Positions 6,018 to 39,245 of a stretch of 55,023 nucleotides of DNA are shown piece by piece. Source of the DNA: Alphaproteobacteria bacterium. GTDB taxonomy: Bacteria; Pseudomonadota; Alphaproteobacteria; UBA2136; UBA6156. Location of the stretch: NCBI GenBank assembly GCA_049297695.1, contig JBAQUT010000022.1:1-55023 (forward strand). Direction: 5' to 3'. Under the pieces are notes generated by a model. That model was given only the letters and a program-made list of their open reading frames with translations, made no database searches and had not been told where the DNA came from. Position numbers and translations under genes: made by a program. Position 1 is the stretch's first letter; each line of letters opens with the position of its first letter.

Positions 6018-7259
6018 ATGCGCAAAGTTGTGGTGACTGGTATGGGCGTGATAAGCCCTTTGGGCTTGAATGTGGCCAGCACGTGGACGGCATTAACCGC
6101 TGGACAAACAGGTTTGGGGCGCATTACGCGGTTTGACCCTGCGGCGTTCCGCTGCCATGTGGCGGGCGAGGTGAAAGGGTTTGAGGCAACTCTGGAGAAT
6201 ACAGGGTTGGATGCCAAAGCCTTGAAGCGGATGGACCGGTTTAGCCACATGGGTTTGGCGGCGGCGTGGGAAGCCATGGGGCAGGCGGGCTTGCGGGGCA
6301 TGAAAGACTGGCCTGCGGAGGCGCGGGAAAAGGTGGCGGTATTTCTTTCCAGCGGGATTGGCGGGTTGGAGAGTTTGGTGGAAGCGCAGGAGGTGTTGGC
6401 CGCCAAAGGGCCACGGGCGGTGTCGCCGCGTTCCATGGGGCAGATGCTCATCAACATGCTGGCGGGGGAGGCGAGCATCCAATACGGCGCGTTGGGGGCG
6501 AATTACAGCGTTGTATCGGCCTGTGCCAGCAGCACCCACGCGTTGGGGTTGGCCAAGATGCAGATTGAAAGCGGTCGGGCCGACGTGGTGCTGGCAGGCG
6601 GGGCGGAAGCGGCCATAACTCCGCTGGGAATTGGGGCCTTTGCAGCCATGCGGGCGCTCTCTAGCAGCTACAACGACACCCCCGCTGCCGCCAGCCGCCC
6701 CTTTGATACGGCGCGGGATGGCTTTGTGATGGGCGAGGGGGCTGCCGTGCTGGTGCTGGAATCGGAAGAGCATGCCAAGGCCCGTGGCGCCACCATTTTG
6801 GCTACCTTGGCGGGGTATGGCGAAACATCGGATGCCTCCGACCCCACCAGCCCCAGCGGCGAAGGAGCCGTGCGGGCCATGAAACAGGCGTTGCGGGATG
6901 CGGGATTGCAGGCTGCGGATGTTGGGTACATCAACGCCCATGCCACCAGCACGCCGGCGGGCGATGAAGTGGAAAGCAACGGCATCAAAAGCGTGTTTGG
7001 CACCACCGTGCCCGTGAGCGGCACCAAAGGGGCCACGGGGCATTTGCTGGGGGCAGCCGGGGCATTGGAGGCCGTGTTTGCGGTGCAGGCCTTGATAACC
7101 CAAACCTTGCCACCCACGCTGAACCTTGCCACGCCGTGCGATGGGGAGATGGATTACATCCCTTTGAAGGCGCGGAAGGTGGATGGGGTGAAGGCCGTAC
7201 TCTCCAACAGTTTTGGGTTTGGGGGCACCAACGGCAGCCTGGTGGTTACGCGCGGGTAG
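6018..7259 (+). CDS. fabF: Beta-ketoacyl-ACP synthase II
   Basis: MRKVVVTGMGVISPLG start with a GGAG RBS. Active-site ACASSTHA, NAHATSTPAGD and GHLLGAAG motifs. Confidence 0.95.
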   Translation: MRKVVVTGMGVISPLGLNVASTWTALTAGQTGLGRITRFDPAAFRCHVAGEVKGFEATLENTGLDAKALKRMDRFSHMGLAAAWEAMGQAGLRGMKDWPAEAREKVAVFLSSGIGGLESLVEAQEVLAAKGPRAVSPRSMGQMLINMLAGEASIQYGALGANYSVVSACASSTHALGLAKMQIESGRADVVLAGGAEAAITPLGIGAFAAMRALSSSYNDTPAAASRPFDTARDGFVMGEGAAVLVLESEEHAKARGATILATLAGYGETSDASDPTSPSGEGAVRAMKQALRDAGLQAADVGYINAHATSTPAGDEVESNGIKSVFGTTVPVSGTKGATGHLLGAAGALEAVFAVQALITQTLPPTLNLATPCDGEMDYIPLKARKVDGVKAVLSNSFGFGGTNGSLVVTRG

Positions 7260-8016
7260 AAGGGGTTTCATTCCATTCCAGCGCCGCATAAGTTTGGTGG
7301 TGGGTGGGCACCAAGGGCACGGGGCGGGCGGTGATGTTGCTAAGGTTGCGGGGGCTGCGTTCGAACCTTGGGCGGGCGATGATAGTGCAAGACTCTAAAA
7401 AACGGAGCAATCCTGTTTGTTTTTTATAAAACGTTTCAATCGCAAACCCCCAAGCTTCCAAAGCGTGAGGCGATGTGAGAGGCGCCCCTGAAACGCCGCG
7501 TTTGGCAAGTTTTTTATCGCAGGCTAACACATCACCTTCATCGGTGCTGAGTGTGAGTTTGCCCCACCCACAACGGTACGTACCATCGGCGTATCCAATA
7601 ATGCCAGACAGTTGTTGGGCAGGTGCTGGCTTTAATTGGAAACGGTGAAGTGAAAAATCACGTTCTGCGCCCTCAATTTGGACAAAGGCAACATCCGCGG
7701 TAGGATGATAAAGTGAGCCCAAGTAAGCATGTTTGGGTTTGCGCGGGATACGAATGGATGGAGGAACATAGGCCAAACGAGCCTGTGCTTCATGGCCATT
7801 TGGATCGGCAAGGGTGATGTGGTAATCTATGGATGGATTTTTTTTGAAATCGTGCCACATCGATACATCCAACGAATGCAAAGGCATAACAACAATGTTG
7901 TGAGGCCAATTGCGGGGTGTTTTTAACAGAAATGCTGTTCCTTTGCCTTCGTCTCCCAAGGTTTGAGCGACGCGGATATGTTCCAGCTTGAGGCGACGGT
8001 GAGCATGCATGGCCAT
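7246..8016 (-). CDS. Trypsin-like (chymotrypsin-fold) serine protease-like protein in an AT-richer insertion
   Basis: Ordered His (VVMPLHS), Asp (TADVAFVQI) and Ser (KRGVSGAPL, GxSGxP-like) candidates. Start uncertain: ATG at 8016 or 8010, or TTG at 8046. The 3' end overlaps the fabF stop by 14 nt. Confidence 0.55.
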   Translation of the reverse strand: MAMHAHRRLKLEHIRVAQTLGDEGKGTAFLLKTPRNWPHNIVVMPLHSLDVSMWHDFKKNPSIDYHITLADPNGHEAQARLAYVPPSIRIPRKPKHAYLGSLYHPTADVAFVQIEGAERDFSLHRFQLKPAPAQQLSGIIGYADGTYRCGWGKLTLSTDEGDVLACDKKLAKRGVSGAPLTSPHALEAWGFAIETFYKKQTGLLRFLESCTIIARPRFERSPRNLSNITARPVPLVPTHHQTYAALEWNETPSTRA

Positions 8017-8138
8017 CAATTTAATGAATACGCTGTGTGCCCACAAGTACCATGGCTAGTGCAAGGCCGCCCACCAAACATACAAGTGCCGTGCAAAAAG
8101 GGTTTGAAAACGGGCCGCGTGGGGGTAAGCTACAGCCC

Positions 8139-9128
8139 ATGGAAAACCGCGCTACCCGCTTTTTGATTGCCGTGTTTGTGGTGTTGTTTGTGGCCGTGGC
8201 GGCGGTGGGATTGGTGGGGCGCGAGCTGGCGCGGCCCGGCCCCTTGGCGGCCGAGAGAACCGTGGTGATACCCAACGGCACCAGCACCAAAGCCATGGCG
8301 GCGTTGTTGGCGCGGGAAGGGGTGTTGCATAGCGCCCGTATGTTTGAGCTTGCGGCGCGGGTGAGCGGCTTTGCCCCCACGTTGAAGGCGGGGGAATATG
8401 TGTTTGAGGCGGGGGTTTCGCCGCGTCAGGTGTTAAGCAAACTGGCGTTTGGCCACACCGCTTCGCGGAGCATGACGCTGCCCGAAGGCCTGACCGTGAA
8501 GCAAGTGCTGGCCATGGTGGAAGGGGATAAAACCCTGAGCGGTGCGGCGCGGCCCATACCGGAGGAGGGGCGGATGTTCCCCGACACGTACACGTTTACC
8601 CATGGCACGCCCCGCGCCAAGCTGTTGGAGCAGATGACGGTGCGGATGGACCAAGAACTGGCTGATGCGTGGGCTGCGAGGGATGGAAACATCCCATTGG
8701 CCAGCGCGGAGGAACTGTTGATTTTGGCGAGCATCGTGCAAAAAGAAGCGGCCAACGATGCCGAAATGCCGTTGGTGGCGGGGGTGTTTGCCAACCGGTT
8801 GCGGAAGGGGATGTTGTTGCAATCCGACCCCACGGTGATGTACGGCGCCGACATGGTGGGGAACGACATTACGAGCAAAGAGTTGAAAGAAGCCAACCCC
8901 TTCAATACCTACCAAAACAAAGGCCTACCCCCCACGCCCATTGCCAACCCAGGCCGTGCGGCCTTGCAGGCGGCGGCCCGCCCCGCCAGCACCGAGGCGT
9001 TGTTTTTTATGGCCAAACCCGACAGGAGTGGCCATGTGTTTACCACCACCTATGCCGAACACCAAAAAGCTGTTAAGGCGTATTGGAGTGCGTATAACCA
9101 AAGGAAGCAAGAGAGTGTAAAGCCATGA
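8139..9128 (+). CDS. mltG: Endolytic murein transglycosylase MltG (YceG-like)
   Basis: N-terminal TM helix plus QSDPTVMYG and NTYQNKGLPPTPIANPG motifs. Start placed at ATG 8139 just before the TM segment. The ORF is open from 8037. Confidence 0.9.
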   Translation: MENRATRFLIAVFVVLFVAVAAVGLVGRELARPGPLAAERTVVIPNGTSTKAMAALLAREGVLHSARMFELAARVSGFAPTLKAGEYVFEAGVSPRQVLSKLAFGHTASRSMTLPEGLTVKQVLAMVEGDKTLSGAARPIPEEGRMFPDTYTFTHGTPRAKLLEQMTVRMDQELADAWAARDGNIPLASAEELLILASIVQKEAANDAEMPLVAGVFANRLRKGMLLQSDPTVMYGADMVGNDITSKELKEANPFNTYQNKGLPPTPIANPGRAALQAAARPASTEALFFMAKPDRSGHVFTTTYAEHQKAVKAYWSAYNQRKQESVKP

Positions 9129-9754
9129 CGTATAAACCGATGTTGATTACTGTGAGTGGAATGAGTGGGGTTGGAAAAGATTCTGTTGTGATGGGGCTTT
9201 GTAAACTGGATAACACGTTGCGTCGGGTTCCAAGTGCAACAACTCGTCCGCAAAGACCAGATGAAATTGAGGCTGTTGATTATTATTTTATGGGGCGAGA
9301 GAAATTTTTAAAGGCTAAAGAAAATGGTGATATACCTGAAGTGAGTGATTATCATGGGAATCTTTACGGTGCTTGGTTACCAGCTATACGGGAGCATATG
9401 AACCAAGGCTTATCTCCTATTAAGGATTGGACATGGAGCGGTGTTGAATATTTTCAACGTGATTTCCCCCAAGAAACATTCAGTGTGCTTGTTATGCCCC
9501 CATCTCGCGAACGGTTGTTCCAACGTTTAACCAAACGGAACCCGGAAAAAGCGGAAGATGGGAAGCGGCGCTTCAAGGCGGCAGAGGAAGATCTAGATCA
9601 TTTAAATGATCCGTTCCATATCTTCACCAACCCCGATATGCGGGGCAGCAAGTTGACCGATTATGATGCCGTGTTTGTGAACGACGATTTGGAAGTGACC
9701 GTGTACGCCGTGGCCAAGCGGATTGCCGAGGAACGGCAGAAGCGGGGCGGATGA
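9125..9754 (+). CDS. Divergent guanylate kinase-like nucleotide kinase
   Basis: 209 aa. P-loop VSGMSGVGKDS, SATTRPQRPDE...DYYF and HGNLYG match the Gmk layout. AT-richer: 25/60 GC in line 9241. ATGA overlap with the mltG stop. Confidence 0.7.
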   Translation: MTYKPMLITVSGMSGVGKDSVVMGLCKLDNTLRRVPSATTRPQRPDEIEAVDYYFMGREKFLKAKENGDIPEVSDYHGNLYGAWLPAIREHMNQGLSPIKDWTWSGVEYFQRDFPQETFSVLVMPPSRERLFQRLTKRNPEKAEDGKRRFKAAEEDLDHLNDPFHIFTNPDMRGSKLTDYDAVFVNDDLEVTVYAVAKRIAEERQKRGG

Positions 9755-11078: not shown

Positions 11079-11516
11079 ATGGTTGATGCATCTAAAGAGT
11101 TAGCCTATTTAGTAGAAAATGGTTTTGGAGATGCTGTGGTTGTGTCTCCTTCCAATGAGAAGATGTCTTTAAGAGATTACGTGCGTGGTACAAAATGGTC
11201 TTCAGGCCGTGAGCATAGACCTATTTTGTGTTCGGTTGAATGTGCTATTGGAACACGTCCGGTCTTGCTATGGGCTCAAGAGACGTACCAACATCTTATC
11301 TCCAACGTGAGTTTAGGTGATAAATCTGGCCAAGGTTTTGAAGGTGTGGCTATGGAAGTGTTGAATGCGTTTACAAACGCACGGCTGGCAGGAAGCGCTT
11401 TAGATGAAGTGCAAGTGAATTATAATGGTAGAAATTTATGCTTTACATCGCAAGATAGTCCTTACAAAATTTCTACCACCTTACAAAAAGTAACCACGCC
11501 CAACCACGGTCGTTGA
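11079..11516 (+). CDS. Hypothetical protein (AT-richer ORFan)
   Basis: 145-aa ORF starting 12 nt after the ndk stop, with a GGGGGA RBS-like tract. No recognisable motif. Confidence 0.5.
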   Translation: MVDASKELAYLVENGFGDAVVVSPSNEKMSLRDYVRGTKWSSGREHRPILCSVECAIGTRPVLLWAQETYQHLISNVSLGDKSGQGFEGVAMEVLNAFTNARLAGSALDEVQVNYNGRNLCFTSQDSPYKISTTLQKVTTPNHGR

Positions 11517-12274: not shown

Positions 12275-12883
12275 GTGAAGCAGCTGATTTTCCCTCTGAA
12301 CACTGGGCCCGATTATTCGGCAGAAGCCTTTGTGCCCACCACGGGCAGTGCGGCCGTGCGGGCGGCTTTGGCGGTGTTGAAACCCAGTAGTATTCCCAAC
12401 ATCTTGAACGGGCTTGTGGTGGTAGGGGCTCCCGCCAGCGGCAAAACCCATTTGGCGGAAATGTGGCGAGCCGACCACCCCGCAGGCGGGGTGGTGGATG
12501 GGTTGGAGAGCTTGGATGCAGCGGCGCAAACCGAGGTGTTCCATACCTTCAACCGCCTGAAGGAGCAAGGCGGGGCGTTGCTGGTAACCAGCCGCGTGCC
12601 CGTGCAAGAGCTGCCGTTGTTGGCCGACCTCAAGTCCCGCCTCTTAACCCTGAACCACGTGTACCTGATGCCCCCCGATGATGCCGAGCTGGCCCAGCTG
12701 GTGGCCAAATGGGCGGCGGAGCGGCAGGTGGTGTTGCCGCCCGCTGTTACCACCTACTTGCTGACGCGGGCCGAGCGCAGCCCAGCGGCGCTGCGCACCC
12801 TTGTGGCGGCGCTGGACGAGTTGAGCTTGGAGGAGAAGCGGGGGGTGAGCGTGGGGTTGGTGAAAAAGGTGTTGGGGAGTTGA
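12275..12883 (+). CDS. hdaA: DnaA-related regulatory inactivation protein HdaA
   Basis: GTG start. QLIFPL N-terminus (clamp-binding-like). Walker A GAPASGKTHLAEMW. DnaA domain III/IV-like C-terminus. Confidence 0.85.
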   Translation: MKQLIFPLNTGPDYSAEAFVPTTGSAAVRAALAVLKPSSIPNILNGLVVVGAPASGKTHLAEMWRADHPAGGVVDGLESLDAAAQTEVFHTFNRLKEQGGALLVTSRVPVQELPLLADLKSRLLTLNHVYLMPPDDAELAQLVAKWAAERQVVLPPAVTTYLLTRAERSPAALRTLVAALDELSLEEKRGVSVGLVKKVLGS

Positions 12884-12908
12884 CAATCTTTATAAGTATA
12901 CATATATA
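12880..12908 (+). promoter_or_regulatory. Consensus sigma70-like promoter overlapping the hdaA stop codon, with a GTATAC box
   Basis: TTGACA (12880-12885) contains the hdaA TGA. 17-nt spacer with GTATAC (12896-12901). TATATA (12903-12908). Confidence 0.5.
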
Positions 12909-12934
12909 AAGGTTCAATACAAAGGAGCCTCAAC

Positions 12935-13477
12935 ATGACATCCCCCCAGATTGTAGAAGCACGTAAAAATAAAGCAAAAAAAGCCATTATGTGTGCAGTA
13001 AAGCTGGCTTCTGGAAAAATTGAATTAGATTATGATGCGGATAAAGTTTTGAGAAGCATAAACTATGCTGCAAAAGGCCTCAACTGCGATGAAGCAATGC
13101 TTGAAGAATTACTTTGTGAACTGAGAGATCATGGTGAAGTATTATATGATGAAACAACGAGAACAGCAATGTTGGAGCGTGAAGTAGAGGTAAAGCCCTT
13201 CGAGATACCTGTGCTCATAGCGGAGCCAGTACGTTCCGAAGGATTGCCTCATGAAAAATTGATTTTGGAAACCTTGGCGAAATCGGGCACGGCTATGAAC
13301 ACATTCCAGATAGGAGAAAAAGCTTTTGGGACTATTTTTGAAAGCCAGACCCCTGAATTTTTAGCAACAATTAAGGTATTGACGGAAAAAGGAGTACTTG
13401 TACGCTATGAACCCAATGGCTCGGCTAAATCCAAAAAAATCGGAAGCCAAGCGGCAACTTACGCGTTGTCGAAATAG
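12935..13477 (+). CDS. Hypothetical winged-helix-like protein (islet ORFan family member)
   Basis: 180 aa. AAAGGAG RBS. The segment PHEKLILETLAKSG...VLTEKGVLVRYEP resembles SHEQVILEALKTAC...LVRKDRVVG of the 15758 gene. AT-richer. Confidence 0.6.
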   Translation: MTSPQIVEARKNKAKKAIMCAVKLASGKIELDYDADKVLRSINYAAKGLNCDEAMLEELLCELRDHGEVLYDETTRTAMLEREVEVKPFEIPVLIAEPVRSEGLPHEKLILETLAKSGTAMNTFQIGEKAFGTIFESQTPEFLATIKVLTEKGVLVRYEPNGSAKSKKIGSQAATYALSK

Positions 13478-13545
13478 GTGCCTTCGTTCTTGCTCGTTGT
13501 AGCAAAGGGCGTTAGTTTCTCTCTGTAAAGTAGGGAGAAAATATC

Positions 13546-14934
13546 ATGCGCATGTTAGTGTTGGCTTTGTTGTTGGCTGCAAACGTGGCCTATGCCCGTG
13601 AAGATGCTGTGCAAACCCGCACCAGCTTTGCCCGCGCCGTGCGGGAAGCCGCCCCTGCGGTGGTGAACATTTATGCCGCCAAGCGCGTGTTGCAGCGGGT
13701 GGGGCCGGCGTTGAACGACCCATTGTTCAACCAACTGTTTGCAGGGCAGGGGCCGTTGCGCGCCAAAGTGGAGCGGAGCCTAGGCAGCGGCGTGATTGTG
13801 GATGCGAGCGGCGTGCTGGTAACCAACTTGCACGTGGTGGAAGGTGCCGACGCCATGAAGGTGGTGATGGCCGACGGGCGCGAGTTTGCGGCGCGGTTGA
13901 TTAACAGTGATGAAAAGCTAGACCTTGCCGTGCTGCGGATGGAGGGGAATGGCCAGCGCTTCCCCGCCGCGCGGTTTGGCGATAGCGACACCCTGCAAGT
14001 GGGCGATGTGGTGCTGGCCGTGGGTAATCCGTTTGGGATTGGCCAGAGTGTGAGCATGGGCGTGGTAAGCGCCGTGGAGCGGAGCAATGCGGCGCTTAGC
14101 CAGTACGGCCAGTTTATCCAAACCGACGTGGCCATTAACCCCGGCAACAGCGGCGGCGCGTTGATTGACAGCACGGGGGCGTTGGTGGGCATCAACAGCG
14201 CTATTTTCAGCAAAACGGGCACCAGCGTGGGCATCAGCTTTGCCATACCCGCCAGTTTGGTGCGGGCGGTGGTGAACGATATTGTGAGTACCGGCCACGT
14301 AAGCCGCCCATGGTTTGGGGCCACGGGGCAAAACATACCCCCCGCATTGGCGGAAAAACTTGGCTTGGGGCGCGGGCAAGGGCAAGGGGTTATCCTCTCC
14401 GACGTGATGCCGGGCAGCCCCGCCGCCCGCGCGGGCATTAAGGCTGGCGACGTGATTGTGGGCATGGATGGAAAATCTGTAACCGACCCCGCCGCGTTGA
14501 ACGAGCGGATTTTGGCAACCCCCAACCTGATTGGCCGCGCCGTGCCGCTCACCCTCTGGCGGGAAGGGCATACACAAACGGCCACCATCACCTTTGAAGC
14601 CTTGCCCGACCGCAACCCCGCCGATGCCGTGAAGCTGGGCGGCGTGGGGCCGTTGGCGGGGGTGGGGGTGGAAAAACTTTCCCCTTCCTTGAACGTGCTT
14701 TTAGACTTGCCTGTGGCCGCCGAAGGCGTGGCCATTACCACCCCCAGCACGCGGAGCGACCCACGTTATGCCCTGATTATCAACGGCATCAAAGCGGGGG
14801 ATGTGCTGCTGGAAGTGAATCAACGGCGCATCCGTACCGTAGCCGATGCCCAGCGGGCCGCCAGCGAGCGCGACCAAAGCTGGATTATCAAGCTCCAACG
14901 CGGGAATGCGGTGATAACGCTGGTGGCGGAGTAG
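13546..14934 (+). CDS. degP: Periplasmic serine endoprotease, DegP/DegQ (HtrA) family
   Basis: Signal peptide. Triad HVVEGAD / DLAVLRM / GNSGGALID. Two PDZ-like C-terminal regions. Confidence 0.95.
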   Translation: MRMLVLALLLAANVAYAREDAVQTRTSFARAVREAAPAVVNIYAAKRVLQRVGPALNDPLFNQLFAGQGPLRAKVERSLGSGVIVDASGVLVTNLHVVEGADAMKVVMADGREFAARLINSDEKLDLAVLRMEGNGQRFPAARFGDSDTLQVGDVVLAVGNPFGIGQSVSMGVVSAVERSNAALSQYGQFIQTDVAINPGNSGGALIDSTGALVGINSAIFSKTGTSVGISFAIPASLVRAVVNDIVSTGHVSRPWFGATGQNIPPALAEKLGLGRGQGQGVILSDVMPGSPAARAGIKAGDVIVGMDGKSVTDPAALNERILATPNLIGRAVPLTLWREGHTQTATITFEALPDRNPADAVKLGGVGPLAGVGVEKLSPSLNVLLDLPVAAEGVAITTPSTRSDPRYALIINGIKAGDVLLEVNQRRIRTVADAQRAASERDQSWIIKLQRGNAVITLVAE

Positions 14935-14936
14935 GG

Positions 14937-14964
14937 TTGACAAATCTTTCTTTAAGTATACATT
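14937..14964 (+). promoter_or_regulatory. Sigma70-like promoter with a GTATAC box directly after the degP stop
   Basis: TAG stop 14932-14934. TTGACA 14937-14942 followed by AATCTTT. GTATAC 14956-14961. TACATT as a candidate -10. Confidence 0.45.
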
Positions 14965-14988
14965 GCAGTGTATCAAAGGAGAAAACCC

Positions 14989-15687
14989 ATGAGCCATTGG
15001 ACACACATCTCGAAAGATGAAGCTTATGTAATAGATAGAATTATTTATAAACTCGGCGATATGGCCACTGCGGATGATATTGTTGACGAATTAAACAGGC
15101 AGAACGTGGCTATACGCCCAGAGTTTGTTAGATTGCATGTAGAAGATACTCATGCGATGGGAAAATTGATTCGTTTGGATGGAACCATTGCGGACGCTTA
15201 TATACGCTCTAAAAAGTTTGTAGGTCCGTACGCAGAAATAGATGAGGCACTGGCAGATAAGGTAAAAACCCTTGTTCGAGAAGCTGGAGTTGAAGCAGAT
15301 AACAAATATTTAATGCCACGACTTCTTCCAAAAACGCATTTCTATGATCGAGCGAATGATGCGCTTATGCATTATTCAATTGATGTGAGGGAAGGCTATG
15401 GTGCAACGGAAAAATATGAAAAACCAGTTCGGCAAGTAATAGATTCTCTGTTTAGAGAGGGTTCGTTACGCATTGGAGGTTGTGAAAACCCTGTTAATAA
15501 TGATAGTTTTTTTGTAAACTGGCATGGCTCTAATAAAAAACATAAAATTTTCTTTTATGTACGTGAAGATGAGCTTATTTTACCTCAGAATGTTGCCAAA
15601 TATCGGGATGCCAAAACAGCCGCTGAGATTGCCCGCAGAGATGAATTAACAAAGGGGTGGGATAAAGATATGGGCGATAGAGGTTAA
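14989..15687 (+). CDS. Hypothetical winged-helix-like protein (islet ORFan family member)
   Basis: ATG at 14989 with an AAAGGAG RBS. Shares ...TADDIVDEL...LIRLDGT... and a C-terminal ...KIFFYVREDELILPQNVAKYR block with the next gene. Confidence 0.6.
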   Translation: MSHWTHISKDEAYVIDRIIYKLGDMATADDIVDELNRQNVAIRPEFVRLHVEDTHAMGKLIRLDGTIADAYIRSKKFVGPYAEIDEALADKVKTLVREAGVEADNKYLMPRLLPKTHFYDRANDALMHYSIDVREGYGATEKYEKPVRQVIDSLFREGSLRIGGCENPVNNDSFFVNWHGSNKKHKIFFYVREDELILPQNVAKYRDAKTAAEIARRDELTKGWDKDMGDRG

Positions 15688-15757
15688 GGATTTAGAAAAA
15701 TTTAGGTTAGAGACTCTTTATTTTTATAGGAATAAATGACGTAAAAGGAGAAACAGA

Positions 15758-16645
15758 ATGATCCAAAGCCATGAACAAGTTATTTTAGAAGCTTTAAAAA
15801 CTGCCTGCGAACAAGCGGAGCGTTTTGGTGCATATCCTGATGTTGTATTAAAAAAATCGCTTTTGAATTTAAAAAACTTGGAAGGTATGACAGGCTTGCG
15901 TCTTTATGAAGTAACAACGGCTTTGGCTGGCCTTGTGAGAAAAGACCGAGTTGTAGGTACCGACCGAGGCGAATATGGCCTTGTTAAAACTTTTGAATGG
16001 GTTGCGCGTTACAACGCCCATGAAGCGATTCGGTGTGCGATTGTTGAGCGAGGATGCTGTGCGACGGTGGATGAACTTGCGGCCGATTCGAACGTTGTAA
16101 AAGCTGGTTGGAATAAACAAGAGCTGTCCAGCTACGTAACATCGCAATTCCAGCCTATGGCATTTGTGCGTTTGGATGGGAACATGGAACAAGGATTCTA
16201 CCCAGTAAATTTTGAGAATTGGGATCGTGAAGAATTAGGCCCCAACCAACCCGATGAACGCATGTTTCATGAAATTCATGCTGCCGTGCGTTTTTCAGAA
16301 TGCGATGCAGGTTTTGATGCCCTCCGACTGATTCTTTTGCGAGATAGTTACCGTACAGACGGTATAAGCTCGAGAATAGCCTACAATGTGATGCGTCCAA
16401 CAGAGCAGGCAAGAGTTCGGAAAGAAATATTTGATGAAACAATTGCGTACATGATTAATACGGGTGTTATCAAATGGGCGGCCTACGAAATTTCACCGAA
16501 TCAAGGTTTAATATTGAGAGCTTTCCTTGGTGACGATTCTCGACCCAATCATCCCGTATTTATGTACGTTGCTAAAGATGGGAAGAAGCTGCCAGATATG
16601 GTGGCAGAGCGGAGAGCCAGCGACTCCAAAGGCATGGGTCGTTAA
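15758..16645 (+). CDS. Hypothetical multi-winged-helix-like protein, tandem paralog of 14989..15687
   Basis: 295 aa. AAAGGAG RBS. ...TVDELAAD...FVRLDGN... and ...PVFMYVAKDGKKLPDMVAERR align by eye with the preceding gene. Confidence 0.6.
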   Translation: MIQSHEQVILEALKTACEQAERFGAYPDVVLKKSLLNLKNLEGMTGLRLYEVTTALAGLVRKDRVVGTDRGEYGLVKTFEWVARYNAHEAIRCAIVERGCCATVDELAADSNVVKAGWNKQELSSYVTSQFQPMAFVRLDGNMEQGFYPVNFENWDREELGPNQPDERMFHEIHAAVRFSECDAGFDALRLILLRDSYRTDGISSRIAYNVMRPTEQARVRKEIFDETIAYMINTGVIKWAAYEISPNQGLILRAFLGDDSRPNHPVFMYVAKDGKKLPDMVAERRASDSKGMGR

Positions 16646-16696
16646 GCAGCGAAGTTCTCATATTCAACGTTTTGGAACATGTGCTATAACGGTGGC

Positions 16697-17977
16697 ATGA
16701 CCCAGCCCCTTGCCGCCCGCCTACGCCCGCGTACCTTGCAGCAGGTGGTGGGGCAGGAGCATATAACGGAAAACGAAGGGTTGTTGGCGCGATTGATTGC
16801 CGCGCAAACCCCGCAAAGTTTGATTTTATGGGGCCCCCCCGGTTGCGGCAAAACCACCTTGGCCCAGCTGTATGCCACGGCGTTTGGGGCGGATTTTGTG
16901 CAACTCTCCGCCGTGTTGGCGGGCGTGGCGGATGTGCGCAAGGTGGTGGAGCAAGCTCAAACGGTGGTGGGGTTGGGGCGCAAAACCGTGCTGTTTGTGG
17001 ATGAAATCCACCGCTTCAACAAAGCCCAGCAAGACGCCTTTTTGCCCCATGTGGAAAGCGGGCTTTTAACGCTGGTAGGGGCCACCACCGAGAACCCCAG
17101 TTTTGCGTTGAACAACGCGTTGCTCTCCCGTGCGCAGGTGTTGGTGCTGAACGCGTTGGATGCGGTGGCGTTGGAGAAAGTGTTAGCCCAAGCCGAAGCC
17201 GAAGTTGGCCCCTTGCCGCTGGATGTCGACGCCCGCCAAACCCTTCTCCATATGGCCCACGGTGATGCGCGGAGCTTGCTGAATATGGTGGAGACCATCG
17301 TGTCGTCATGGCGAGGGAGCGAAGCGGACGTGGCCATCTCACGCGAGGAGCTTATCAAACGGTTACCAACCAGCATGGCCAATTACGACAAAGGGGGCGA
17401 TTGGCACTACGACGTGATTTCCGCCCTTCACAAAAGCGTGCGGGGGAGCGACCCCGACGCCGCCTTGTACTACTTGGCCCGCATGCTGGAAGGGGGCGAG
17501 GATGGGATGTATCTGGCGCGACGGTTGATCCGCATGGCGGTGGAGGATATTGGCTTGGCCGACCCCCAAGCCCTGCCGTTGGCCGTGGCGGCACAAGATG
17601 CCTACCGCACCATGGGCAGCCCGGAAGGGGATTTGGCCTTGGCCGAAGTGGCGGTGTACTTGGCGTTGGCACCTAAAAGCATTGGAGTGTACGAGGGGTG
17701 GAACGCGGCCAAGGCTTTGGCCAAGGCCACGGCAGAGTTGGTGCCGCCCAAGCATATCATCAACGCCCCCACGAACATGATGAAAGAGTTGGGGCACGGG
17801 GAAGGCTACCAGTACGACCCCCACACGGCGGATGGGTTCAGCGGACAGAATTACTTCCCCACCGCCATGGCGGAACGCCCCAGCCTGTACAAGCCCGTGG
17901 AGCGGGGGTTTGAGCGGGAGATGGTGAAGCGCATGGAGTATTTTGCCAAACTGCGGGCAAAAAAGAGTAAAGCCTAG
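16697..17977 (+). CDS. rarA: Replication-associated recombination protein A (AAA+ ATPase)
   Basis: Walker A GPPGCGKTTLA, Walker B VLFVDEIHRFNK, MgsA C-terminal region (YDKGGDWHYDVISALHKSVRGSD). Confidence 0.93.
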   Translation: MTQPLAARLRPRTLQQVVGQEHITENEGLLARLIAAQTPQSLILWGPPGCGKTTLAQLYATAFGADFVQLSAVLAGVADVRKVVEQAQTVVGLGRKTVLFVDEIHRFNKAQQDAFLPHVESGLLTLVGATTENPSFALNNALLSRAQVLVLNALDAVALEKVLAQAEAEVGPLPLDVDARQTLLHMAHGDARSLLNMVETIVSSWRGSEADVAISREELIKRLPTSMANYDKGGDWHYDVISALHKSVRGSDPDAALYYLARMLEGGEDGMYLARRLIRMAVEDIGLADPQALPLAVAAQDAYRTMGSPEGDLALAEVAVYLALAPKSIGVYEGWNAAKALAKATAELVPPKHIINAPTNMMKELGHGEGYQYDPHTADGFSGQNYFPTAMAERPSLYKPVERGFEREMVKRMEYFAKLRAKKSKA

Positions 17978-18021
17978 GCAAGGGGGTTGTAAGGCTTAGG
18001 GGGAATCCCCATGCTTTGAGG

Positions 18022-18792
18022 ATGGGAATTGTGTTGCCGTTAACACCACCGACCCCGAAACCTCTTGATGCAGGGGCGGTTGCAGCAGGTGTGGCCGAAG
18101 TTGTGAAATTCCGCCGTAAGTGTGTTGCCCCTACCTTAAAAACATTCCCCGGACTTTACCAAACGCAAGCCCATATGGATGCGTGGTTTAGCCAACTTTA
18201 TCGCCAACTTCCTGCCGACGGCCGTCGGTACGTGGTTGGGTTCTCTCACGGTACGCTGGAAGCCCGTCGTATGGCGGCCCGTGGCGAGGCGGATGTTTTG
18301 ATTTTGATTGCCCCGCCGATGGGGGGGTACGTGAGTTACTGCTCGTGGCTTGGCAATGCCATTGCTTCAACCATGTTAGACCCGTTGAGCAACATAGACC
18401 CCACCGCCCGTGTTGATGCCATGTTAAGCCGTAATCATGGTGACAAGATGAATGAGTTTGGTATGGGAATGCGCCCGCATATGATTCGGGCCTTAGGGCA
18501 CGATATGATGCGCAACTACGCCGAAGGCCGTGAAAAAGGAGTTGAATGTTTCAATTTTAAAAGTTGGGAATACCACCAAGAAATCAAAGTACCAACGCTT
18601 GTTGTGGCAAGTGTGAACGATCGGCTTGTTCCACTGGAAGAACCCATGCAAGTTATACGGCAAATATCCACAGCCGAGCCAATGCTGGTTGAAGGTAACC
18701 ATTTGGCGGTGTTTGAGGCTCCTCATCATATAGGCAAAATAGCCGACCATTTTAAAGTTATTTTTGGTGAGCACCTTATTGAGCGCCATTAA
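18022..18792 (+). CDS. Alpha/beta hydrolase fold protein
   Basis: Nucleophile elbow GFSHG, candidate Asp (SVNDRLVP) and His (EGNHLAVFE). An alternative TTG start lies at 18016. Confidence 0.65.
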   Translation: MGIVLPLTPPTPKPLDAGAVAAGVAEVVKFRRKCVAPTLKTFPGLYQTQAHMDAWFSQLYRQLPADGRRYVVGFSHGTLEARRMAARGEADVLILIAPPMGGYVSYCSWLGNAIASTMLDPLSNIDPTARVDAMLSRNHGDKMNEFGMGMRPHMIRALGHDMMRNYAEGREKGVECFNFKSWEYHQEIKVPTLVVASVNDRLVPLEEPMQVIRQISTAEPMLVEGNHLAVFEAPHHIGKIADHFKVIFGEHLIERH

Positions 18793-18838
18793 CCCGATAG
18801 GTTAGACCTTCCATTCCACCTGTGTTACCTTACCTCCC

Positions 18839-19699
18839 ATGAAACCCTACCTGCACCACGCCCCGCACCCTACGGCACCTGTGGTGGTGATATTGCCGGG
18901 GGTGAACAGCGGGCCGTATTTGTTTGAAGGCGCGGTGGCGGCGCTGGGGGATACCCACCGCTTGATTATCGCCAACCCGCCCGGCTGTGGCGGCACGCCC
19001 ATGCCCATGCCGCTGACGGCCGAAACTTACGCCCGCACGGTGCTGGCGTTGCTGGATGACATGCAGGTGGAGGGTTCCTTCAGCCTTCTCGGCCACAGTT
19101 TGGGCAGTTTTGCGGCGCAAGAGCTGGCCCGTGTGGCGCCAGAACGGGTGGAACGGTTGATACTGGCCAGCACTAGCATCGGCCAGCCCTACATGGCGCG
19201 GGATACGTTGGCCATACGCGGGGTAACGGGCATGAGTTTTTGGGATTTATCCCGCGCTATCGCCAAAGACCCTGCAACCCATATGAAGCATTTTTTCGGC
19301 CCTGCGTTCCCTGTGCAAAACGCGCAGGCGTATCTGGATTTTATCGCCAAACGCCAAGCCAACCTGGCCCCCAAGCAGGTGACTGTGGCGCAGTTTGCAG
19401 CGGGCGGGGCGTTCAGCAGTTACCGTTGGGCGCATAACCTAACGCCGCCCACGTTGGTGGTACAGGGCGGGGCGGATATCCTCACCCCTGCCTCCAGCGC
19501 CCGCAAATTGGCGCAATTTATACCCAACGCCCGTTACCTTGAGTTTTACGGGGTAGGGCACTTCCCCATGCTGGAGCACGAAGGGTTTTACCCCAGTATC
19601 AAACGCTTTTTGCTGGGCCATGCGGAAGGCGAGGTGCTGGACGACCATGTGGGTGTGTGGGAAAAACTCCAGCGCAGTTGGTTGCGGTTGCATGGATAG
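18839..19699 (+). CDS. Alpha/beta hydrolase
   Basis: GHSLGS elbow, GGADILTP and GVGHFPMLE motifs in canonical order. Confidence 0.8.
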   Translation: MKPYLHHAPHPTAPVVVILPGVNSGPYLFEGAVAALGDTHRLIIANPPGCGGTPMPMPLTAETYARTVLALLDDMQVEGSFSLLGHSLGSFAAQELARVAPERVERLILASTSIGQPYMARDTLAIRGVTGMSFWDLSRAIAKDPATHMKHFFGPAFPVQNAQAYLDFIAKRQANLAPKQVTVAQFAAGGAFSSYRWAHNLTPPTLVVQGGADILTPASSARKLAQFIPNARYLEFYGVGHFPMLEHEGFYPSIKRFLLGHAEGEVLDDHVGVWEKLQRSWLRLHG

Positions 19700-19716
19700 T
19701 GTTTTTAGTATACATA
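19688..19716 (+). promoter_or_regulatory. Putative promoter with a GTATAC box spanning the hydrolase stop codon
   Basis: TTGCAT (19688-19693), 17-nt spacer, TACATA (19711-19716). GTATAC at 19708-19713. The upstream stop TAG is at 19697-19699. Confidence 0.35.
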
Positions 19717-19739
19717 TATAGATAAGTAGGAGAATGAAG

Positions 19740-20297
19740 ATGACCCAACCTTTACCTAAACCCGAACCCAAGTTGGCCGAGATTGACCGCGAGAAGGCGG
19801 AAAACGTGTTCCGTAACATGATGCGGGAAATTCAACGGCACCCCGAATCGGCCATCCAAAAAAATATTGATTTGATGGTGATTGCAGGGATGTTGGGGTT
19901 TGGAAAAAAATTGCCAGAATTATCTGAATTTGTAGCTGGACAGTCGGGGCGAAAAAGCAAAACCTTTTATAATCAATTTACTGCTTATGCGAATGATGAG
20001 GATTATCGGCAAGCAGGTTTGAGAACTCCTACTCGGAATAATGAAATGGCAACGGTTAGCTGGGCGAGAGTGCAGGCAGCCTTGTTGGCGGGTTATCAAG
20101 ATGGAATGAAGATGGGGCAATTGTGTGAACGGGTTGCCCAACAACTTCTTTATGCAAACGGTGATTTCATACAATTTTTGTTGAGCAAGTGTGATCGTGG
20201 TGGCTTATGGCGTAAATCAGTGGGGTTGCCTTATCATGAAGGAAAGGGGATTTCTTCTATGAATCAAGCGACCGAGAATGATGTTGGGCGCGAATGA
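19740..20297 (+). CDS. Hypothetical protein (AT-richer ORFan)
   Basis: TAGGAG RBS 7 nt upstream of the ATG at 19740 (the ATG at 19734 is too close to it). The 3' end overlaps the next gene's start as ATGA. Confidence 0.55.
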   Translation: MTQPLPKPEPKLAEIDREKAENVFRNMMREIQRHPESAIQKNIDLMVIAGMLGFGKKLPELSEFVAGQSGRKSKTFYNQFTAYANDEDYRQAGLRTPTRNNEMATVSWARVQAALLAGYQDGMKMGQLCERVAQQLLYANGDFIQFLLSKCDRGGLWRKSVGLPYHEGKGISSMNQATENDVGRE

Positions 20298-25289: not shown

Positions 25290-25814
25290 ATGATGAAATG
25301 GTATTCCTTTGTTTTGCTTTTAGTTTTTCTGCTGGTGCAGGGCGTTGTGGCGCAAACGTTGGGCCTTATTTCCAACATTCGGTTTCCTACCATAGAGTTC
25401 GCCATGAACCCGTTGGCAGGGCAAATCCGTATGGGCACCAATGGCGCCATGACATACCCCACGGGCGCCAGCGGGGCAAGTACGGGCATTCCGGGGCAGG
25501 TTCAAATTACGGGTACGGTGGGTAGCGCGGTCAGTATCCGTTGCCGCCGGAGTGCTACCTTGTTAGGGCCTTCAGGTGCTACTCTTGCTATTAACCCTGC
25601 GGCTGTCAGCATTGGTACGGGCCAAACATATTCAGCCGCGCCCAAATGCAACGGGTTAACAACCACGGTTATTACCCACACGTTAACATCCAATGCATCC
25701 CAAAATATTTTATATCTGGCAGGGCAACTTCAAAGCAACGGCGTCACCCTGGTGAATGGTTCCTATTCCATCTCCACAGGCAACAAGATAACGGTACGAG
25801 TGGTATACATTTAA
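25290..25814 (+). CDS. Secreted beta-rich putative fimbrial subunit (DUF4402-like by composition and ending)
   Basis: Signal peptide MMKWYSFVLLLVFLLVQGVVAQ. Gly/Thr/Ser/Ala-rich. Ends ...ITVRVVYI, like the pilin-like gene at 30596. Followed directly by the usher-like gene. Confidence 0.55.
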   Translation: MMKWYSFVLLLVFLLVQGVVAQTLGLISNIRFPTIEFAMNPLAGQIRMGTNGAMTYPTGASGASTGIPGQVQITGTVGSAVSIRCRRSATLLGPSGATLAINPAAVSIGTGQTYSAAPKCNGLTTTVITHTLTSNASQNILYLAGQLQSNGVTLVNGSYSISTGNKITVRVVYI

Positions 25815-25815: not shown

Positions 25816-28800
25816 ATGGGCTTGATACTTCTGAAAGCCATGATGGCGGTAATACTAGCAGCCGCAGGCGTGGTGTATGTGGGCGATAAGCTGGATGTAA
25901 CCGAACGCCCCGCCATGAGCTATTGGCAGCATGTTAACCATATCACAGGGCAAGCATGGCACACACTTCAAATCTCGTTGGGTGTGGCGCCAGGTGGGGC
26001 TGGCGCGCAAGGACAGCCTTTTCGGCTAGAAAGTCTGTGCCCAACTACCATCCAACACATCGATATCAACGGTGTTACCCAGCTGGATGCGGGCAAACTC
26101 AGCCGCGAGGCCCCGTTGCTGGAAGGCAAACCCTACGAGATGGGGAAGGGGCTGGCGCTGTTCCGGTACATCAAAGAGGCCTACCAGCGCCAAGGTTTGC
26201 CCAACCCCGTGCTGAGTTTGCATTTGGATGCCGTGTGCCAAGGCCGTGTAGTGGTGCAGGTTACCGAAGGTTTGCTGCAACCGCCCCCCACGATGGACGA
26301 GGCTATGCACATCGCCCAGCAAGCGGTCGTGCTTCCCAAGCTGCAGGGGGGTGGTTATGGGCCGCGGGCGTTGCTTCTGCCCCCCCACCAAGGTGGCTGG
26401 ACATGGCACGATGTGCCCGACGAAGCCCTTGCTCCCCAGCAGGTTGCCCCCACTGTTCAACCTCCAGCCGAAGTGGAACTGAGTGTGAAAAGCGCAACCG
26501 GAGTATCTCCTCCCAGTGGTTGGGCCGAAGCCAGCGCCGACCAAAGCGCCCCTGTTGCTCCAGGGTGGCAGGGAGAAACCCCCAACGACGAGAATTTGTT
26601 GATTGTGGGCGTGATGGTCAACGGGCGAGTGGTCTCCCGCGGGGTGGCCACGTACATGGATGAATCGGGCGGTGAAATCTGGATTCCCTTAGGGTTTTTA
26701 GTACGGGTGATGGGCTTCCCCATGCAGGTGGATGTGGCGGCAGGCACGGTGGAAGGCTGGTTTGTGCGCGAAGAAAACCGCGTGTACCTAAACATGGCCA
26801 ACGAACGCCTGATTGCCCAAGGCCGCGAGCAACCTTACCCAAAAGGCCAAATCCAGCGCTGGGAGGATGATATGTATGTGAAAGAAAGCTTGGTGGGGAA
26901 ACTGTTCCCCTTAAAGGCCCGTTTGGATATGAATGAATTGATGTTGGTGCTGACCACCACCGAAGCTTTGCCCGAAGAAGAACGCTTGATACGGGAAGCC
27001 ACATGGGAACAGATGGAAGCCGGAAAGCGTTTGAACGCCGCCAACGATATGAAAGATGCCATAACATTGCCCTACCCCCTGATAGATAAGCCCTTGGTGC
27101 GCTTGAACGGCGGGCTGACCACCCAACGCCCCTCCCAGGGGGAATCAACCTATCAAAGCAACGTTTCGGTACAGGCCGAAGGTGCGTTGCTGTATGGAAG
27201 CGCCCAAGTTACGTTGGGGGCCGAGCGCACGGCGGACGGGCAAACAAAGCTTGTGGATGGGAACGCCCTATGGTCGAGGGATAGCCTTCAGCCCGATATG
27301 TTGGGGGTGCTGAAGGCAACGGGGGTGCAGGTGGGGGATATCCGCGCCGCCCAACCGCCGCTAGCCCGCATGGAAGCAGGTGGGGTAGGGGTGCGAGTTC
27401 ATAACCGTCCGTTCCAGCGGGTGGATAACCCCGACAGGTTGGTGATTGAAGGCTTGGCGCCGGTGGGTTGGGATGTGGAGATTTATCAAGACCAAAGTTT
27501 GCTGGCCTACCAGCGGGTGGATGGCACGGGTAAGTATGTGTTTGAGGCGTTGCCGTTGCGGGTGGGGCTGAACATGTTTCGGATTTTGGAATTTGGCCCC
27601 CAAGGCGAAAAACGGGAACGGCAAGAGCGGTACTTTTTGGGGCAGGATATGCCCTCCAAGGGTGAGGTTCAATACGACACCACCGTGTACCAACCCCGTG
27701 GAAAAGTGTTGCATCTGGCCGATACGCCGTTGGAAACCGACCCCGTGCAAATGGCCCAGCGGTTGGAATTGGGGCTTAGCAACAATGCGGCGTTGCAGGT
27801 TGGGGTGTACGGGGTTGGTGCCGGGGTATCGCAAACCCAGCAAGGGGCTACGGCTGGGCTTAGGGGCACGTGGGCGGGGGTTTATGGCACGCTGGATGCC
27901 ATGCGCACCCAGCAGGGGGGGCAAAGCTATGCGACCTCGGCCCGCAACACGGTGGCGGGAGTTGATATGCGGATTGCAGGCCTGATGAACCGTGGTTTTA
28001 CGGGTGACAGCGAGATAACCGACGCCTACGAAGCCGAAGTAAGCCGCATGGTGCGGATGGGACTTGTGGGGGTGGATGGTACTTTAAGTTACAACACCAG
28101 CCGTAACGCCAGCAACGCGTGGCAGCACACTCTGAATCAACGAACAGGCATAAGTTACAAAGGCTTCAACGTAAGCCATGTTCTGGAACACGGGTGGGGC
28201 GAAAACAGCACCCCAACATGGCAAGGCAATGCCGAATTGGCGGGGCGTTGGGATGCGTTAAGCTGGCGTAGCAGTGTGGCGTACAACCCCAATGCCCCCC
28301 GCGTGCTGACGCGCTTGGGTATCAACGGCCAAATGCCTGTGGCGGACAGGCTGAGCGTGGACGGAAGCTATACCTTTGCCAACCAAGGGGATGGGTTAAG
28401 CACGTTGCTTGGGAACGTGCGGTACGATATGGGGGCGTATGCCTTGGGCTTTCAAGGCCAAGCCGACAGCGTGGGCAACATGGGGTTGGGGCTAACCTTC
28501 AGCAGCTTGCTGGTGCCCACCGATGACGGCGGTTACCGTCAAGCGCACCCCAACTATGGCAGCGGCCTTGGCCGTGCGTTGGTGAGGGTGTTTACCGATA
28601 GCAATGAGAATGGCGCTTACGACGAGGGCGAGCCTTTGATGGAAGGCGTGGCCATACGCAACCGAACGCGCGGCACCCGCCACCTTACCAAGCATACAGG
28701 GCTGGCCTTGGTGGATAACTTGCCCGCCAACACGCCTGTGCGGTTGGAAATTGAAGATGAATCCATCAACGATATTTTCTTGAAACCTACCAAGCCATCC

Positions 28801-31177: not shown

Positions 31178-31236
31178 GGTATAATCCTTTGTGTTGTTGT
31201 GTCTTTTTATCGCCCAAGGAAGAAGGGATGATAATT

Positions 31237-31248
31237 TGACATATGTCA
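31237..31248. promoter_or_regulatory. Perfect 12-bp palindrome upstream of the pilin-like gene (candidate operator)
   Basis: TGACATATGTCA at 31237-31248, followed by a further ATGACAT half-site (31254-31260), 60 nt upstream of the ATG at 31177. Confidence 0.3.
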
Positions 31249-31450
31249 TATCTATGACATGGAGTTAGATTAGCTGTATGTCGGACAAAGTTGCTAGACA
31301 TGCCTATTTTTTGACCAGATGGGGGTGTGGTAAATATCAGACAAATGATGTAATATGATCAAATATGCAATAAGATAGCCATGTTTTCTAATATGTCGTG
31401 CCGTGTCGTTTCCCCTGTATTCTCCAACAAGCATCGTATATCCTCACACA

Positions 31451-36246: not shown

Positions 36247-36378
36247 GTAAAGTCTCCTTATATATAGCCGCAATCTGCCACCGCGCAGGCCGTGGGGCAA
36301 GGGCTTGCATACGCACAGGCGCCTAAGCAACGGGCAGGGGCGCTTGACGCCCCCTTACAACCCTCTTACAACAACAGG

Positions 36379-36792: not shown

Positions 36793-36860
36793 CGTGCCAC
36801 AACGGAACCACCCAAGCCGCTTACGGGCCAACCCGGAGCGGCTTTTCCTCTGCTGGATTT

Positions 36861-36963: not shown

Positions 36964-36973
36964 GGAGCCACTC

Positions 36974-39150: not shown

Positions 39151-39245
39151 CACACATCTCCTTATCTGCCCGTTGTTTACACCCAAAATGTGCATACCGC
39201 AAGAGGGTGTTGTGTACAGTAAAACAAAGGGGTAGACTGCAAGGC

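Follow-up and report, generated by a model that had tools for sequence, protein, structure and literature searches.

Three AT-rich genes (A, B and C) placed around degP, between hdaA and rarA, are real, lineage-restricted protein genes. They lie in the window analysed here, a 55,023-nucleotide stretch of DNA from an alphaproteobacterial assembly. Our preferred interpretation, which we hold at slightly less than even confidence, is that they encode lineage-specific, co-regulated small binding proteins of the winged-helix type, with a function that we infer. If this is true, small proteins of the winged-helix type gain two new sequence families, both restricted to a bacterial lineage that has hardly been sampled. 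Orphan winged-helix-type proteins alone are common and of modest interest. What is less ordinary is their context: an AT-rich class of genes has stayed at orthologous positions while synonymous divergence reached saturation, and several of its members have a promoter box that is conserved between loci and between species. The class and the box together offer a testable handle on how lineage-specific genes are retained and how they are regulated.

The three open reading frames were verified on the forward strand (Table 1). As originally predicted, they are richer in AT than the backbone, with GC contents of 0.40-0.45 and GC3 values of 0.30-0.39, compared with approximately 0.60 and 0.72-0.80 for hdaA, degP and rarA. 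This second, AT-rich compositional class takes in about one third of the window's genes. In A, B and C, GC varies by codon position in the pattern of coding sequence, and the predicted proteins are mildly acidic (pI 5.3-6.1). An AAAGGAG ribosome-binding site stands 7-8 nt ahead of the ATG in every case. The genes are best explained as probably expressed accessory genes of an uncultured proteobacterium, most likely an alphaproteobacterium, encoding small, probably cytoplasmic proteins that appear to lack a catalytic domain.

Table 1 Features of the A, B and C loci.
Feature	Position	Strand	Description
A promoter	12880..12908	+	TTGACA 12880..12885, GTATAC 12896..12901, TATATA 17 nt after the -35
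A ribosome-binding site	12921..12927	+	AAAGGAG
Gene A	12935..13477	+	180 aa
A protein domains	residues 1-82, 83-101, 105-180		AlphaFold: predicted winged helix; disordered linker; weaker winged-helix-like second domain
B promoter	14937..14964	+	TTGACA, 16-nt spacer, TACATT; GTATAC 14956..14961
B ribosome-binding site	14975..14981	+	AAAGGAG
Gene B	14989..15687	+	232 aa; B/C/P0005 family; N-terminal module absent, C-terminal tail as in P0005
C ribosome-binding site	15744..15750	+	AAAGGAG
Gene C	15758..16645	+	295 aa; tandem paralog of B; extra N-terminal module of ~80 aa, also in P0005

The three proteins are orphans without a catalytic motif, in agreement with the original prediction. Scans of whole proteins and sub-domains against Pfam, NCBIfam, PHROGs and PADLOC returned nothing at threshold, and profile searches of PDB sequences (one with a B/C/P0005 profile, the other with an A/P0004 profile) gave chance-level matches only. 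No PADLOC model of a known anti-phage defence system matched; the sole PADLOC signal was a weak one to PbeA for A (13.4 bits).

Among 5.8 billion proteins, A had one match, P0004. This protein is 61% identical to A, intact and of equal length, and its gene also sits between hda and degP (locus L083), making it the positional orthologue. The dN/dS of A is approximately 0.14 (pN 0.23, pS 0.70), comparable to that of the neighbours HdaA (0.12) and p242 (0.15). Purifying selection thus acts on A. GC3 is 0.34-0.36 in both A and its orthologue despite the saturation of synonymous sites. Because A was inherited vertically at one site through this saturation with GC3 still low, its AT-richness has been maintained and is not the signature of a fresh import.

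These data bear on the possibility that some or all of the reading frames are non-functional, either chance open reading frames or decaying pseudogenes in AT-rich spacers. Such a reading would fit the orphan status of the proteins among billions of database entries and the low confidence of the structure models for A and C. However, it conflicts with the dN/dS of A and its intact orthologue, with the preservation of B, C and P0005 as full-length open reading frames down to 22-28% identity, with the consensus ribosome-binding sites and promoters, and with the codon-position GC typical of coding sequence. We consider it very improbable overall, and for A it is largely refuted.

The AlphaFold model of A has an overall pLDDT of 64.6, with values of 72-85 in the N-terminal domain and 36-72 in residues 105-180. 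Residues 1-82 were modelled with the topology H-b-H-H-b-b, which agrees with the H1-S1-H2-H3-S2-S3 order of a winged helix, and they superpose on known members of the fold. In Foldseek, this domain matched the cullin WHB, Rpa2-WH and MCM-WH domains with an rmsd of 2.6-2.9 Å over approximately 75 residues, probabilities of 0.99-1.0 and target-normalised TM scores of 0.66-0.76, at weak E-values of 6e-3 to 0.1. All Foldseek E-values were weak, 6e-3 being the best, and the models of A and C were each built on alignments of two sequences. A winged-helix fold for the N-terminal domain of A is moderately supported by this modelling.

Full-length A recovered tandem winged-helix proteins in Foldseek, including Vps25, Nse3, JetB and YceH. 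Like Vps25 of ESCRT-II, the KITE proteins (ScpB, MukE, JetB and Nse1-3) and YceH (DUF480), A is predicted to consist of two winged-helix-type domains joined by a linker, and it resembles them in its length of ~180 aa and in having no catalytic domain. The full-length superpositions were poor (rmsd 12-16 Å), which leaves the matches of single domains as the only informative ones. A also differs from these proteins in that its sequence is dissimilar to KITE, Vps25 and YceH, and it does not match the Pfam models SMC_ScpB, MukE or DUF480. The neighbours of A, B and C are hdaA, degP and rarA, and neither a kleisin nor an SMC gene adjoins them.

This likeness raises the alternative that A, B and C act as adaptors that bind other proteins, or as effectors aimed at a host. 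Their winged helices would be scaffolds for contacts between proteins, a use known from cullin WHB, ESCRT-II and KITE proteins. The shared promoter box described below would then mark a condition-specific regulon, comparable to the effector sets of intracellular bacteria. The best structural matches of A do bind proteins (cullin WHB, Rpa2-WH, Vps25, Nse3 and JetB), the three genes are fast-evolving orphans, and several unrelated AT-rich orphan genes have the one regulatory box. The proteins are acidic overall, as is the winged-helix-like unit common to B and C (pI 4.9-5.7), which suits protein binding no less than DNA binding. However, Foldseek matches to isolated winged-helix domains cannot separate DNA-binding from protein-binding types. 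No SMC, kleisin or secretion-system genes were found among the window proteins scanned, and inspection of the N-termini of A, B and C by eye revealed neither a signal peptide nor a known secretion motif. We regard an adaptor or effector role as unlikely.

B and C are true tandem paralogs. Their homology extends over ~200 aa and includes both sequence blocks on which the pairing had originally been proposed (IRLDGT/VRLDGN and the C-terminal H..F.YV..D..LP..VA..R). The direct match is weak: in BLASTP, the two proteins aligned over 202 aa with 22% identity (E=0.001), and the similarity was reached in 0/1000 shuffles (Gumbel p=2.6e-4). Their relationship is settled by P0005, a distant homologue encoded in a related organism, which matches both B (E=2e-11) and C (E=7e-17). 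Queries with B and C among the 5.8 billion proteins returned only themselves, and a HMMER search of 1.84 billion cluster representatives with a B+C profile added P0005 alone. The B/C/P0005 profile found no further members in JGI metagenome contigs or in the viral contig collection. We also considered the N-terminal module of C as an internal repeat of the rest of C or of B, and rejected both (shuffle p=0.8 and p=0.44, respectively).

The AlphaFold model of C has a pLDDT of 47, and its C-terminal 145 residues were not modelled. In this low-confidence model, residues 1-150 form two H-H-H-hairpin units (pLDDT 50-75). Foldseek returned no match below E=0.09 for C, and the non-significant list consisted mostly of DtxR, IclR and SelB winged-helix proteins. 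Sub-threshold HTH_9 and MarR_2 signals from Pfam were detected in the N-terminal module of P0005. The helix-helix-helix-hairpin pattern of the low-confidence C model likewise occurs in the N-terminal domains of MarR, IclR and DtxR/MntR. However, the best score to these families was 12.3 bits (MarR_2), against a cut-off of 27. Unlike these factors, the proteins have no recognisable dimerisation or ligand-binding domain, and the putative DNA-reading unit of B and C is acidic. Given the poor model of C, built on two sequences, a winged-helix fold is no more than hinted at for B and C. The winged-helix fold originally proposed for all three proteins therefore stands at moderate strength for A and is weakly hinted at in C; for B and C together we infer it.

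The original prediction also placed A in the same family, on the basis of a resemblance to the N-terminal module of C, and this did not hold. BLASTP aligned nine residues at E=0.19, and hhalign gave a probability of 0.09% (E=0.6). Hand-picked segments of A and C reached p=0.03 in a shuffle test. When each profile was searched with hmmsearch against all open reading frames of the window, no cross-match between A and B/C appeared. Membership of A in the B/C family is not supported by these comparisons, and we rejected it. Nor did the all-window search reveal any other member of the dispersed, multi-copy family that had been proposed. By sequence comparison, the proteins fall into two unrelated families, one of A and its positional orthologue and the other of B, C and P0005.

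B and C interrupt a junction that is closed elsewhere, as the original prediction had it. In two proteobacterial loci from metagenome-assembled genomes (L002 and L004), degP ends approximately 60-90 bp before rarA. B-C is thus inserted relative to the degP-rarA junction of other genomes. An undescribed insertion process had been suggested, but there was nothing at the A or B-C sites to bear it out. Neither site has flanking direct or inverted repeats, an integrase, a transposase or a tRNA, the only tRNAs of the window being at 42773 and 54660. No recombinase families were detected among the scanned window proteins, which included A, B, C, HdaA, DegP and RarA. No terminator-like structures follow A, B or C, the B-C gap included. 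A mechanism of insertion is therefore not apparent.

Horizontal acquisition of the genes as AT-rich cargo of a mobile element such as a phage or plasmid, through such an undescribed insertion, is nevertheless worth weighing. The proteins could then be what is left of functions of the element, such as replication initiators or repressors with tandem winged helices. The GC content of ~0.40 within a 0.60 backbone is in line with this, as is the start of the AT-rich DNA exactly at the stop codon of the upstream gene. Other genomes have a degP-rarA junction without B and C, and in the relative the P0005 gene lies at a different locus (L085), beside rnhA and ftsJ. Rep-type initiators include the tandem winged-helix architecture, and a viral fold search returned replication-initiator entries, at non-significant scores. 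B and C are similar in size (230-300 aa) to the iteron-binding Rep_3/RepA (WH1-WH2) initiators of plasmids and phages, share their AT-rich DNA and may, like them, be built of tandem winged helices. However, PHROG, Pfam Rep and PADLOC gave no match, and the surroundings are neither plasmid nor phage. There are also no iterons; the tandem repeats are trivial and at most 21 nt long. Together with the bare flanks, the lack of a relative in the viral contig collection and the vertical inheritance of A at one site past synonymous saturation, these results make imported cargo doubtful.

AT-rich accessory genes of alphaproteobacteria have been described as targets of the xenogeneic silencer MucR (PMC9410896, PMC8857273). 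A, B and C are similar to such targets in being AT-rich and lineage-specific within a GC-rich, alphaproteobacterial-looking genome. They differ from them in having promoters and ribosome-binding sites of consensus strength, and in an AT-richness that persists through vertical descent.

The promoter box is shared across loci and species. Near-identical boxes precede A (TTGACAATCTTTATAAGTATACAT) and B (TTGACAAATCTTTCTTTAAGTATACAT), and a TTGAC..GTATACAT promoter box is common to A, its orthologue, B and P0005. The TTGACA-N10-GTATAC arrangement is kept ahead of the P0004 gene in L083, and the GTATACATTGC of the B promoter occurs identically upstream of P0005 in L085. A GTATAC promoter had been predicted before all three genes; A and B have one, while C has no box of its own and lies 70 nt downstream of B. 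In the 70 nt upstream of each of 18 low-GC genes, GTATAC occurred five times in all against 0.26 expected, a count that none of 20,000 shuffles reached. We rejected GTATAC as part of a longer palindromic operator because its flanks are asymmetric, and as a -10 element set at a constant distance because its spacing from the TTGAC-type hexamer ranges from 0 to 16 nt. The stop codon of hdaA (TGA) falls within the TTGACA of the A promoter, and the B promoter starts 2 nt past the stop codon of degP.

In the absence of terminators after A and B-C, transcripts probably continue from A into degP and from B-C into rarA. The B promoter would thus probably also drive C and rarA. Co-transcription of A with degP and of B-C with rarA is suggested on these grounds.

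We propose, with the reserve stated at the outset, that A is built of winged-helix-type modules and that B and C probably combine such modules with a C-terminal domain of unknown type. The B/C pair would have arisen by local tandem duplication in this genome, followed by loss of the N-terminal module from B and of the C-terminal tail from C. A and B-C are seated exactly in gaps between conserved housekeeping genes, each driven by its own putative sigma-70-type promoter with the common GTATAC(AT) box. The winged-helix modules would most likely bind either nucleic acid, in a sequence- or structure-specific manner, or a partner protein. The proteins could act as small regulators or nucleoid-associated adaptors within a co-regulated AT-rich gene set, any DNA-binding or regulatory role being putative.

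A more far-reaching version, which we consider quite unlikely, is that the AT-rich orphans, including A and B/C, form a dedicated regulon of promoter-carrying cassettes. These would be placed exactly at core-gene stop codons and share the TTGAC..GTATACAT promoter, with transcription running on into the core gene that follows. Either selection or a mutational process specific to these genes would actively keep them AT-rich through vertical descent, and the winged-helix proteins would serve the lineage as silencers, anti-silencers or readers of GTATAC. Searches with the adjoining RarA found nearest relatives of at most 56-57% identity.

The coordinates, AT-rich composition and AAAGGAG ribosome-binding sites originally assigned to the orphan genes A, B and C were correct. 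Their GC content is 0.40–0.45 and their GC3 0.30–0.39, against ~0.60 and 0.72–0.80 in neighbouring core genes, and AAAGGAG precedes the ATG by 7–8 nt in each. Among 5.8 billion proteins, B and C had no relatives other than each other, and A had one, P0004 (61% identity). P0004 is encoded on a short contig (L083) of a related organism, in the order ndk, small ORF, 241-aa gene, hda, A orthologue and degP, which is the same position. Core proteins of this contig and the window are 75–91% identical. Comparison of A with its orthologue gave a pN of 0.23, a pS of 0.70 and a dN/dS of ~0.14, within the range of its neighbours (HdaA, 0.12; 242-aa gene, 0.15). A is therefore coding, under purifying selection and vertically inherited at this site. 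That the three are not genes at all is largely refuted, and we consider it highly improbable. The orthologue has a GC3 of 0.34, versus 0.62–0.70 for its own neighbours. Because synonymous sites of this pair, the one orthologous pair compared, are saturated and low GC3 nevertheless persists, the AT bias of A is maintained and is not a residue of recent import.

Features of the window and of related loci
Feature	Position	Strand	Remark
Low-GC3 ORF	7246..8046	-	
Guanylate kinase gene	9125..9754		low GC3
ndk		+	first of listed region
Low-GC ORF	11079..11516	+	between ndk and 242-aa gene
242-aa gene		+	between ORF 11079 and hdaA
hdaA	12275..12883	+	
Gene A	12935..13477	+	180 aa
degP leader hairpin	13516..13540; L083 3506..3534		
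degP	13546..14934	+	
Gene B	14989..15687	+	232 aa
Gene C	15758..16645	+	295 aa
rarA	16679..17977	+	
Weak alpha/beta-hydrolase-like gene	18016..18792		rarA–p307 interval
286-aa gene	18839..19699		rarA–p307 interval
Low-GC orphan	19734..20297		rarA–p307 interval
Paralog	25290..25814		second pair
1137-aa gene	25816..29229		between the paralogs
Paralog	30596..31249	-	second pair
Low-GC3 ORF	33265..33750		
Gene	36355..36909	-	
Repeat run	36915..36965		
CTP synthase gene	36974..38662		
Low-GC3 ORF	38713..39330	-	
tRNA-Leu(GAG)	42773..42857		
Cysteine-rich low-GC gene	42973..43809		N-terminal part coiled-coil
Cysteine-rich low-GC gene	43834..44409		
Low-GC3 ORF	46445..47113	-	
Low-GC3 ORF	47188..47496	-	
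Low-GC3 ORF	51194..51628	-	
GTATAC boxes	12896, 14956, 19708, 33254, 47131; L083 2883; L085 727		

B and C are collinear over ~200 residues at 22% identity (BLASTP E=0.001). In a Smith-Waterman shuffle test the observed score was reached in 0 of 1000 shuffles (Gumbel p 2.6e-4). Judged from these alignments, their direct similarity is significant, yet weak. Among 1.84 billion cluster representatives, a profile of B and C matched just these two proteins and a third, P0005 (E=9e-19). This protein matches both B (E=2e-11) and C (E=7e-17), which removes the doubt over their kinship and bears out the proposal that they are tandem paralogs. P0005 shares an N-terminal module of ~80 aa with C and a C-terminal tail with B, so the ancestor had both and each tandem copy lost one. 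Upstream sequence places the true start of P0005 at its Met33, giving 296 aa, like C. Its gene is also AT-rich (GC 0.41) with GC-rich flanks, and lies at another locus of the related organism (L085), adjoining rnhA and ftsJ.

The suggested resemblance between A and the N-terminal module of C did not hold. BLASTP aligned 9 residues at E=0.19, and hand-picked segments gave a shuffle p of 0.03. With hhalign, the set of C, P0005 and B matched A and P0004 at a probability of 0.09%, and no other ORF in the window matched either profile. Membership of A in the B/C family was rejected on the BLASTP and hhalign results and the lack of profile cross-matches in the window. By sequence comparison, the three genes are thus one tandem pair and an unrelated gene. 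Of the dispersed and tandem family first described, the pair stands and the dispersed member falls away.

As had been proposed, the pair interrupts a commonly adjacent degP–rarA arrangement. In two proteobacterial MAG loci (L002 and L004), rarA starts ~60–90 bp after the end of degP, so B and C have been inserted between two genes that remain neighbours in other genomes. In both loci p307, a 307-aa gene, lies downstream of rarA at some distance (~430 bp in L002); in the window this interval (18016..20297) is also enlarged, by three extra genes. The nearest RarA among GTDB species representatives and JGI metagenomes is only 56–57% identical, and the source organism therefore belongs to a barely sampled lineage. 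Its HdaA match and the MAGs that matched best, L002 and L004 among them, suggest Alphaproteobacteria. We considered that A, B and C might be mobile-element cargo. However, the surroundings of A and of B–C bear no element signature, with flanking repeats, recombinase genes, tRNAs and iterons all absent, and A descended vertically with its AT-richness preserved. We regard this origin as unlikely.

GC3 in the window is bimodal: about 18 of ~59 called ORFs fall at 0.30–0.50 and the rest at 0.55–0.80. Almost all members of the low-GC group in the window lack Pfam matches; the guanylate kinase gene is an odd core gene within this class. The A promoter box is TTGACAATCTTTATAAGTATACAT, whose TTGACA contains the hdaA stop codon. 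The B box, TTGACAAATCTTTCTTTAAGTATACAT, is near-identical and begins 2 nt past the degP stop. The A orthologue retains TTGACA-N10-GTATAC. Upstream of P0005 is GTTGAC-N17-GTATACATTGC, the last 11 nt of which are identical to sequence upstream of B; the related organism thus keeps GTATAC before both genes. GTATAC occurs seven times in the window, and the 70-nt stretches preceding low-GC genes contain five of these sites (before A, B, 19734, 33310 and 46445(-)), versus 0.26 expected; a count of five was reached in 0 of 20000 shuffles. These five boxes sit 20–55 nt 5' of the start codons of unrelated low-GC orphans. Spacing to the -35-like hexamer is not constant, ranging between 0 and 16 nt, and the flanks of the box show no palindromic symmetry. 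The box may be a promoter element or an operator. GTATAC promoters had been predicted for all three genes; A and B have them, and C, lacking such a box, is probably transcribed together with B. Terminator-like structures are absent after each of the three genes, and transcription of A and of B–C would continue into the downstream core genes.

The AlphaFold model of A, with the orthologue in the alignment, has a mean pLDDT of 64.6. Residues 1–82 (pLDDT 72–85) have the topology H-b-H-H-b-b, residues 83–101 are disordered, and residues 105–180 show a similar helix and hairpin pattern at lower confidence. Nearly all Foldseek matches in the PDB are winged-helix domains. A superposes on cullin WHB, Rpa2-WH and MCM-WH with an rmsd of 2.6–2.9 Å over ~75 residues (probability 0.99–1.0, target-normalised TM 0.66–0.76), with E-values of only 6e-3 to 0.1. 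Full-length matches include the tandem winged-helix proteins Vps25, Nse3, JetB and YceH, and a viral library gave the same generic picture. We accept the first domain as a predicted winged helix, and the second is probably another. The model of C is poor (pLDDT 47), and its last 145 residues have no model. Its first 150 residues (pLDDT 50–75) form two H-H-H-hairpin units, and the conserved VRLDG motif occupies the second hairpin turn. Foldseek gave no significant match for C, in a list headed by the winged-helix proteins DtxR, IclR and SelB, and the P0005 N-terminal module had sub-threshold HTH_9 and MarR_2 matches. For C, these results only hint at the predicted winged-helix fold.

All three proteins are mildly acidic (pI 5.3–6.1). 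The second domain of A is basic (pI 9.0) and the winged-helix-like unit common to B and C is acidic, so DNA binding is neither supported nor excluded. The structural matches and acidic pI are compatible with protein-binding adaptors or effectors, a role we think unlikely. Our tentative interpretation, held at a little under even confidence, is that A, B and C are lineage-specific small winged-helix-type binding proteins of two unrelated families, in an AT-rich class sharing a promoter box and co-read with downstream core genes. The original prediction is thus confirmed in part as an observation and supported in part as an interpretation. A and B/C/P0005 are new sequence families, probably inside a common fold class; what stands out more than the fold is an AT-rich gene class that persists and shares a GTATAC promoter box. 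In alphaproteobacteria, targets of the MucR silencer include known AT-rich accessory genes (PMC9410896, PMC8857273), and by analogy MucR silencing is a plausible regulatory context.

Several other features were observed. The positional counterpart of ORF 11079..11516 in the related organism is only 75 aa long (L083 1272..1499), with similarity limited to 29 residues (E=2e-5); this orphan gene is very fast-evolving or partly degraded. The degP leader contains a 10-bp hairpin, UUUCUCUCUG-UAAAG-UAGGGAGAAA, in which the Shine-Dalgarno sequence of degP is paired. The related organism has an equally shaped hairpin made up of other bases (z-scores -3.35 in the window and -3.59 in L083). The hairpin may act on degP translation much as an RNA thermometer does. 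Two tandem cysteine-rich genes, whose C-terminal 107 residues are 67% identical, come after the tRNA-Leu(GAG) gene, and this stretch (42773..44409) may represent a small tRNA-associated island. The second paralog pair shares 42% identity over 144 aa (E=1e-19). The spacer between the divergent genes 36355..36909(-) and CTP synthase contains a series of short GTAACC / CAGTAACC-like repeats.
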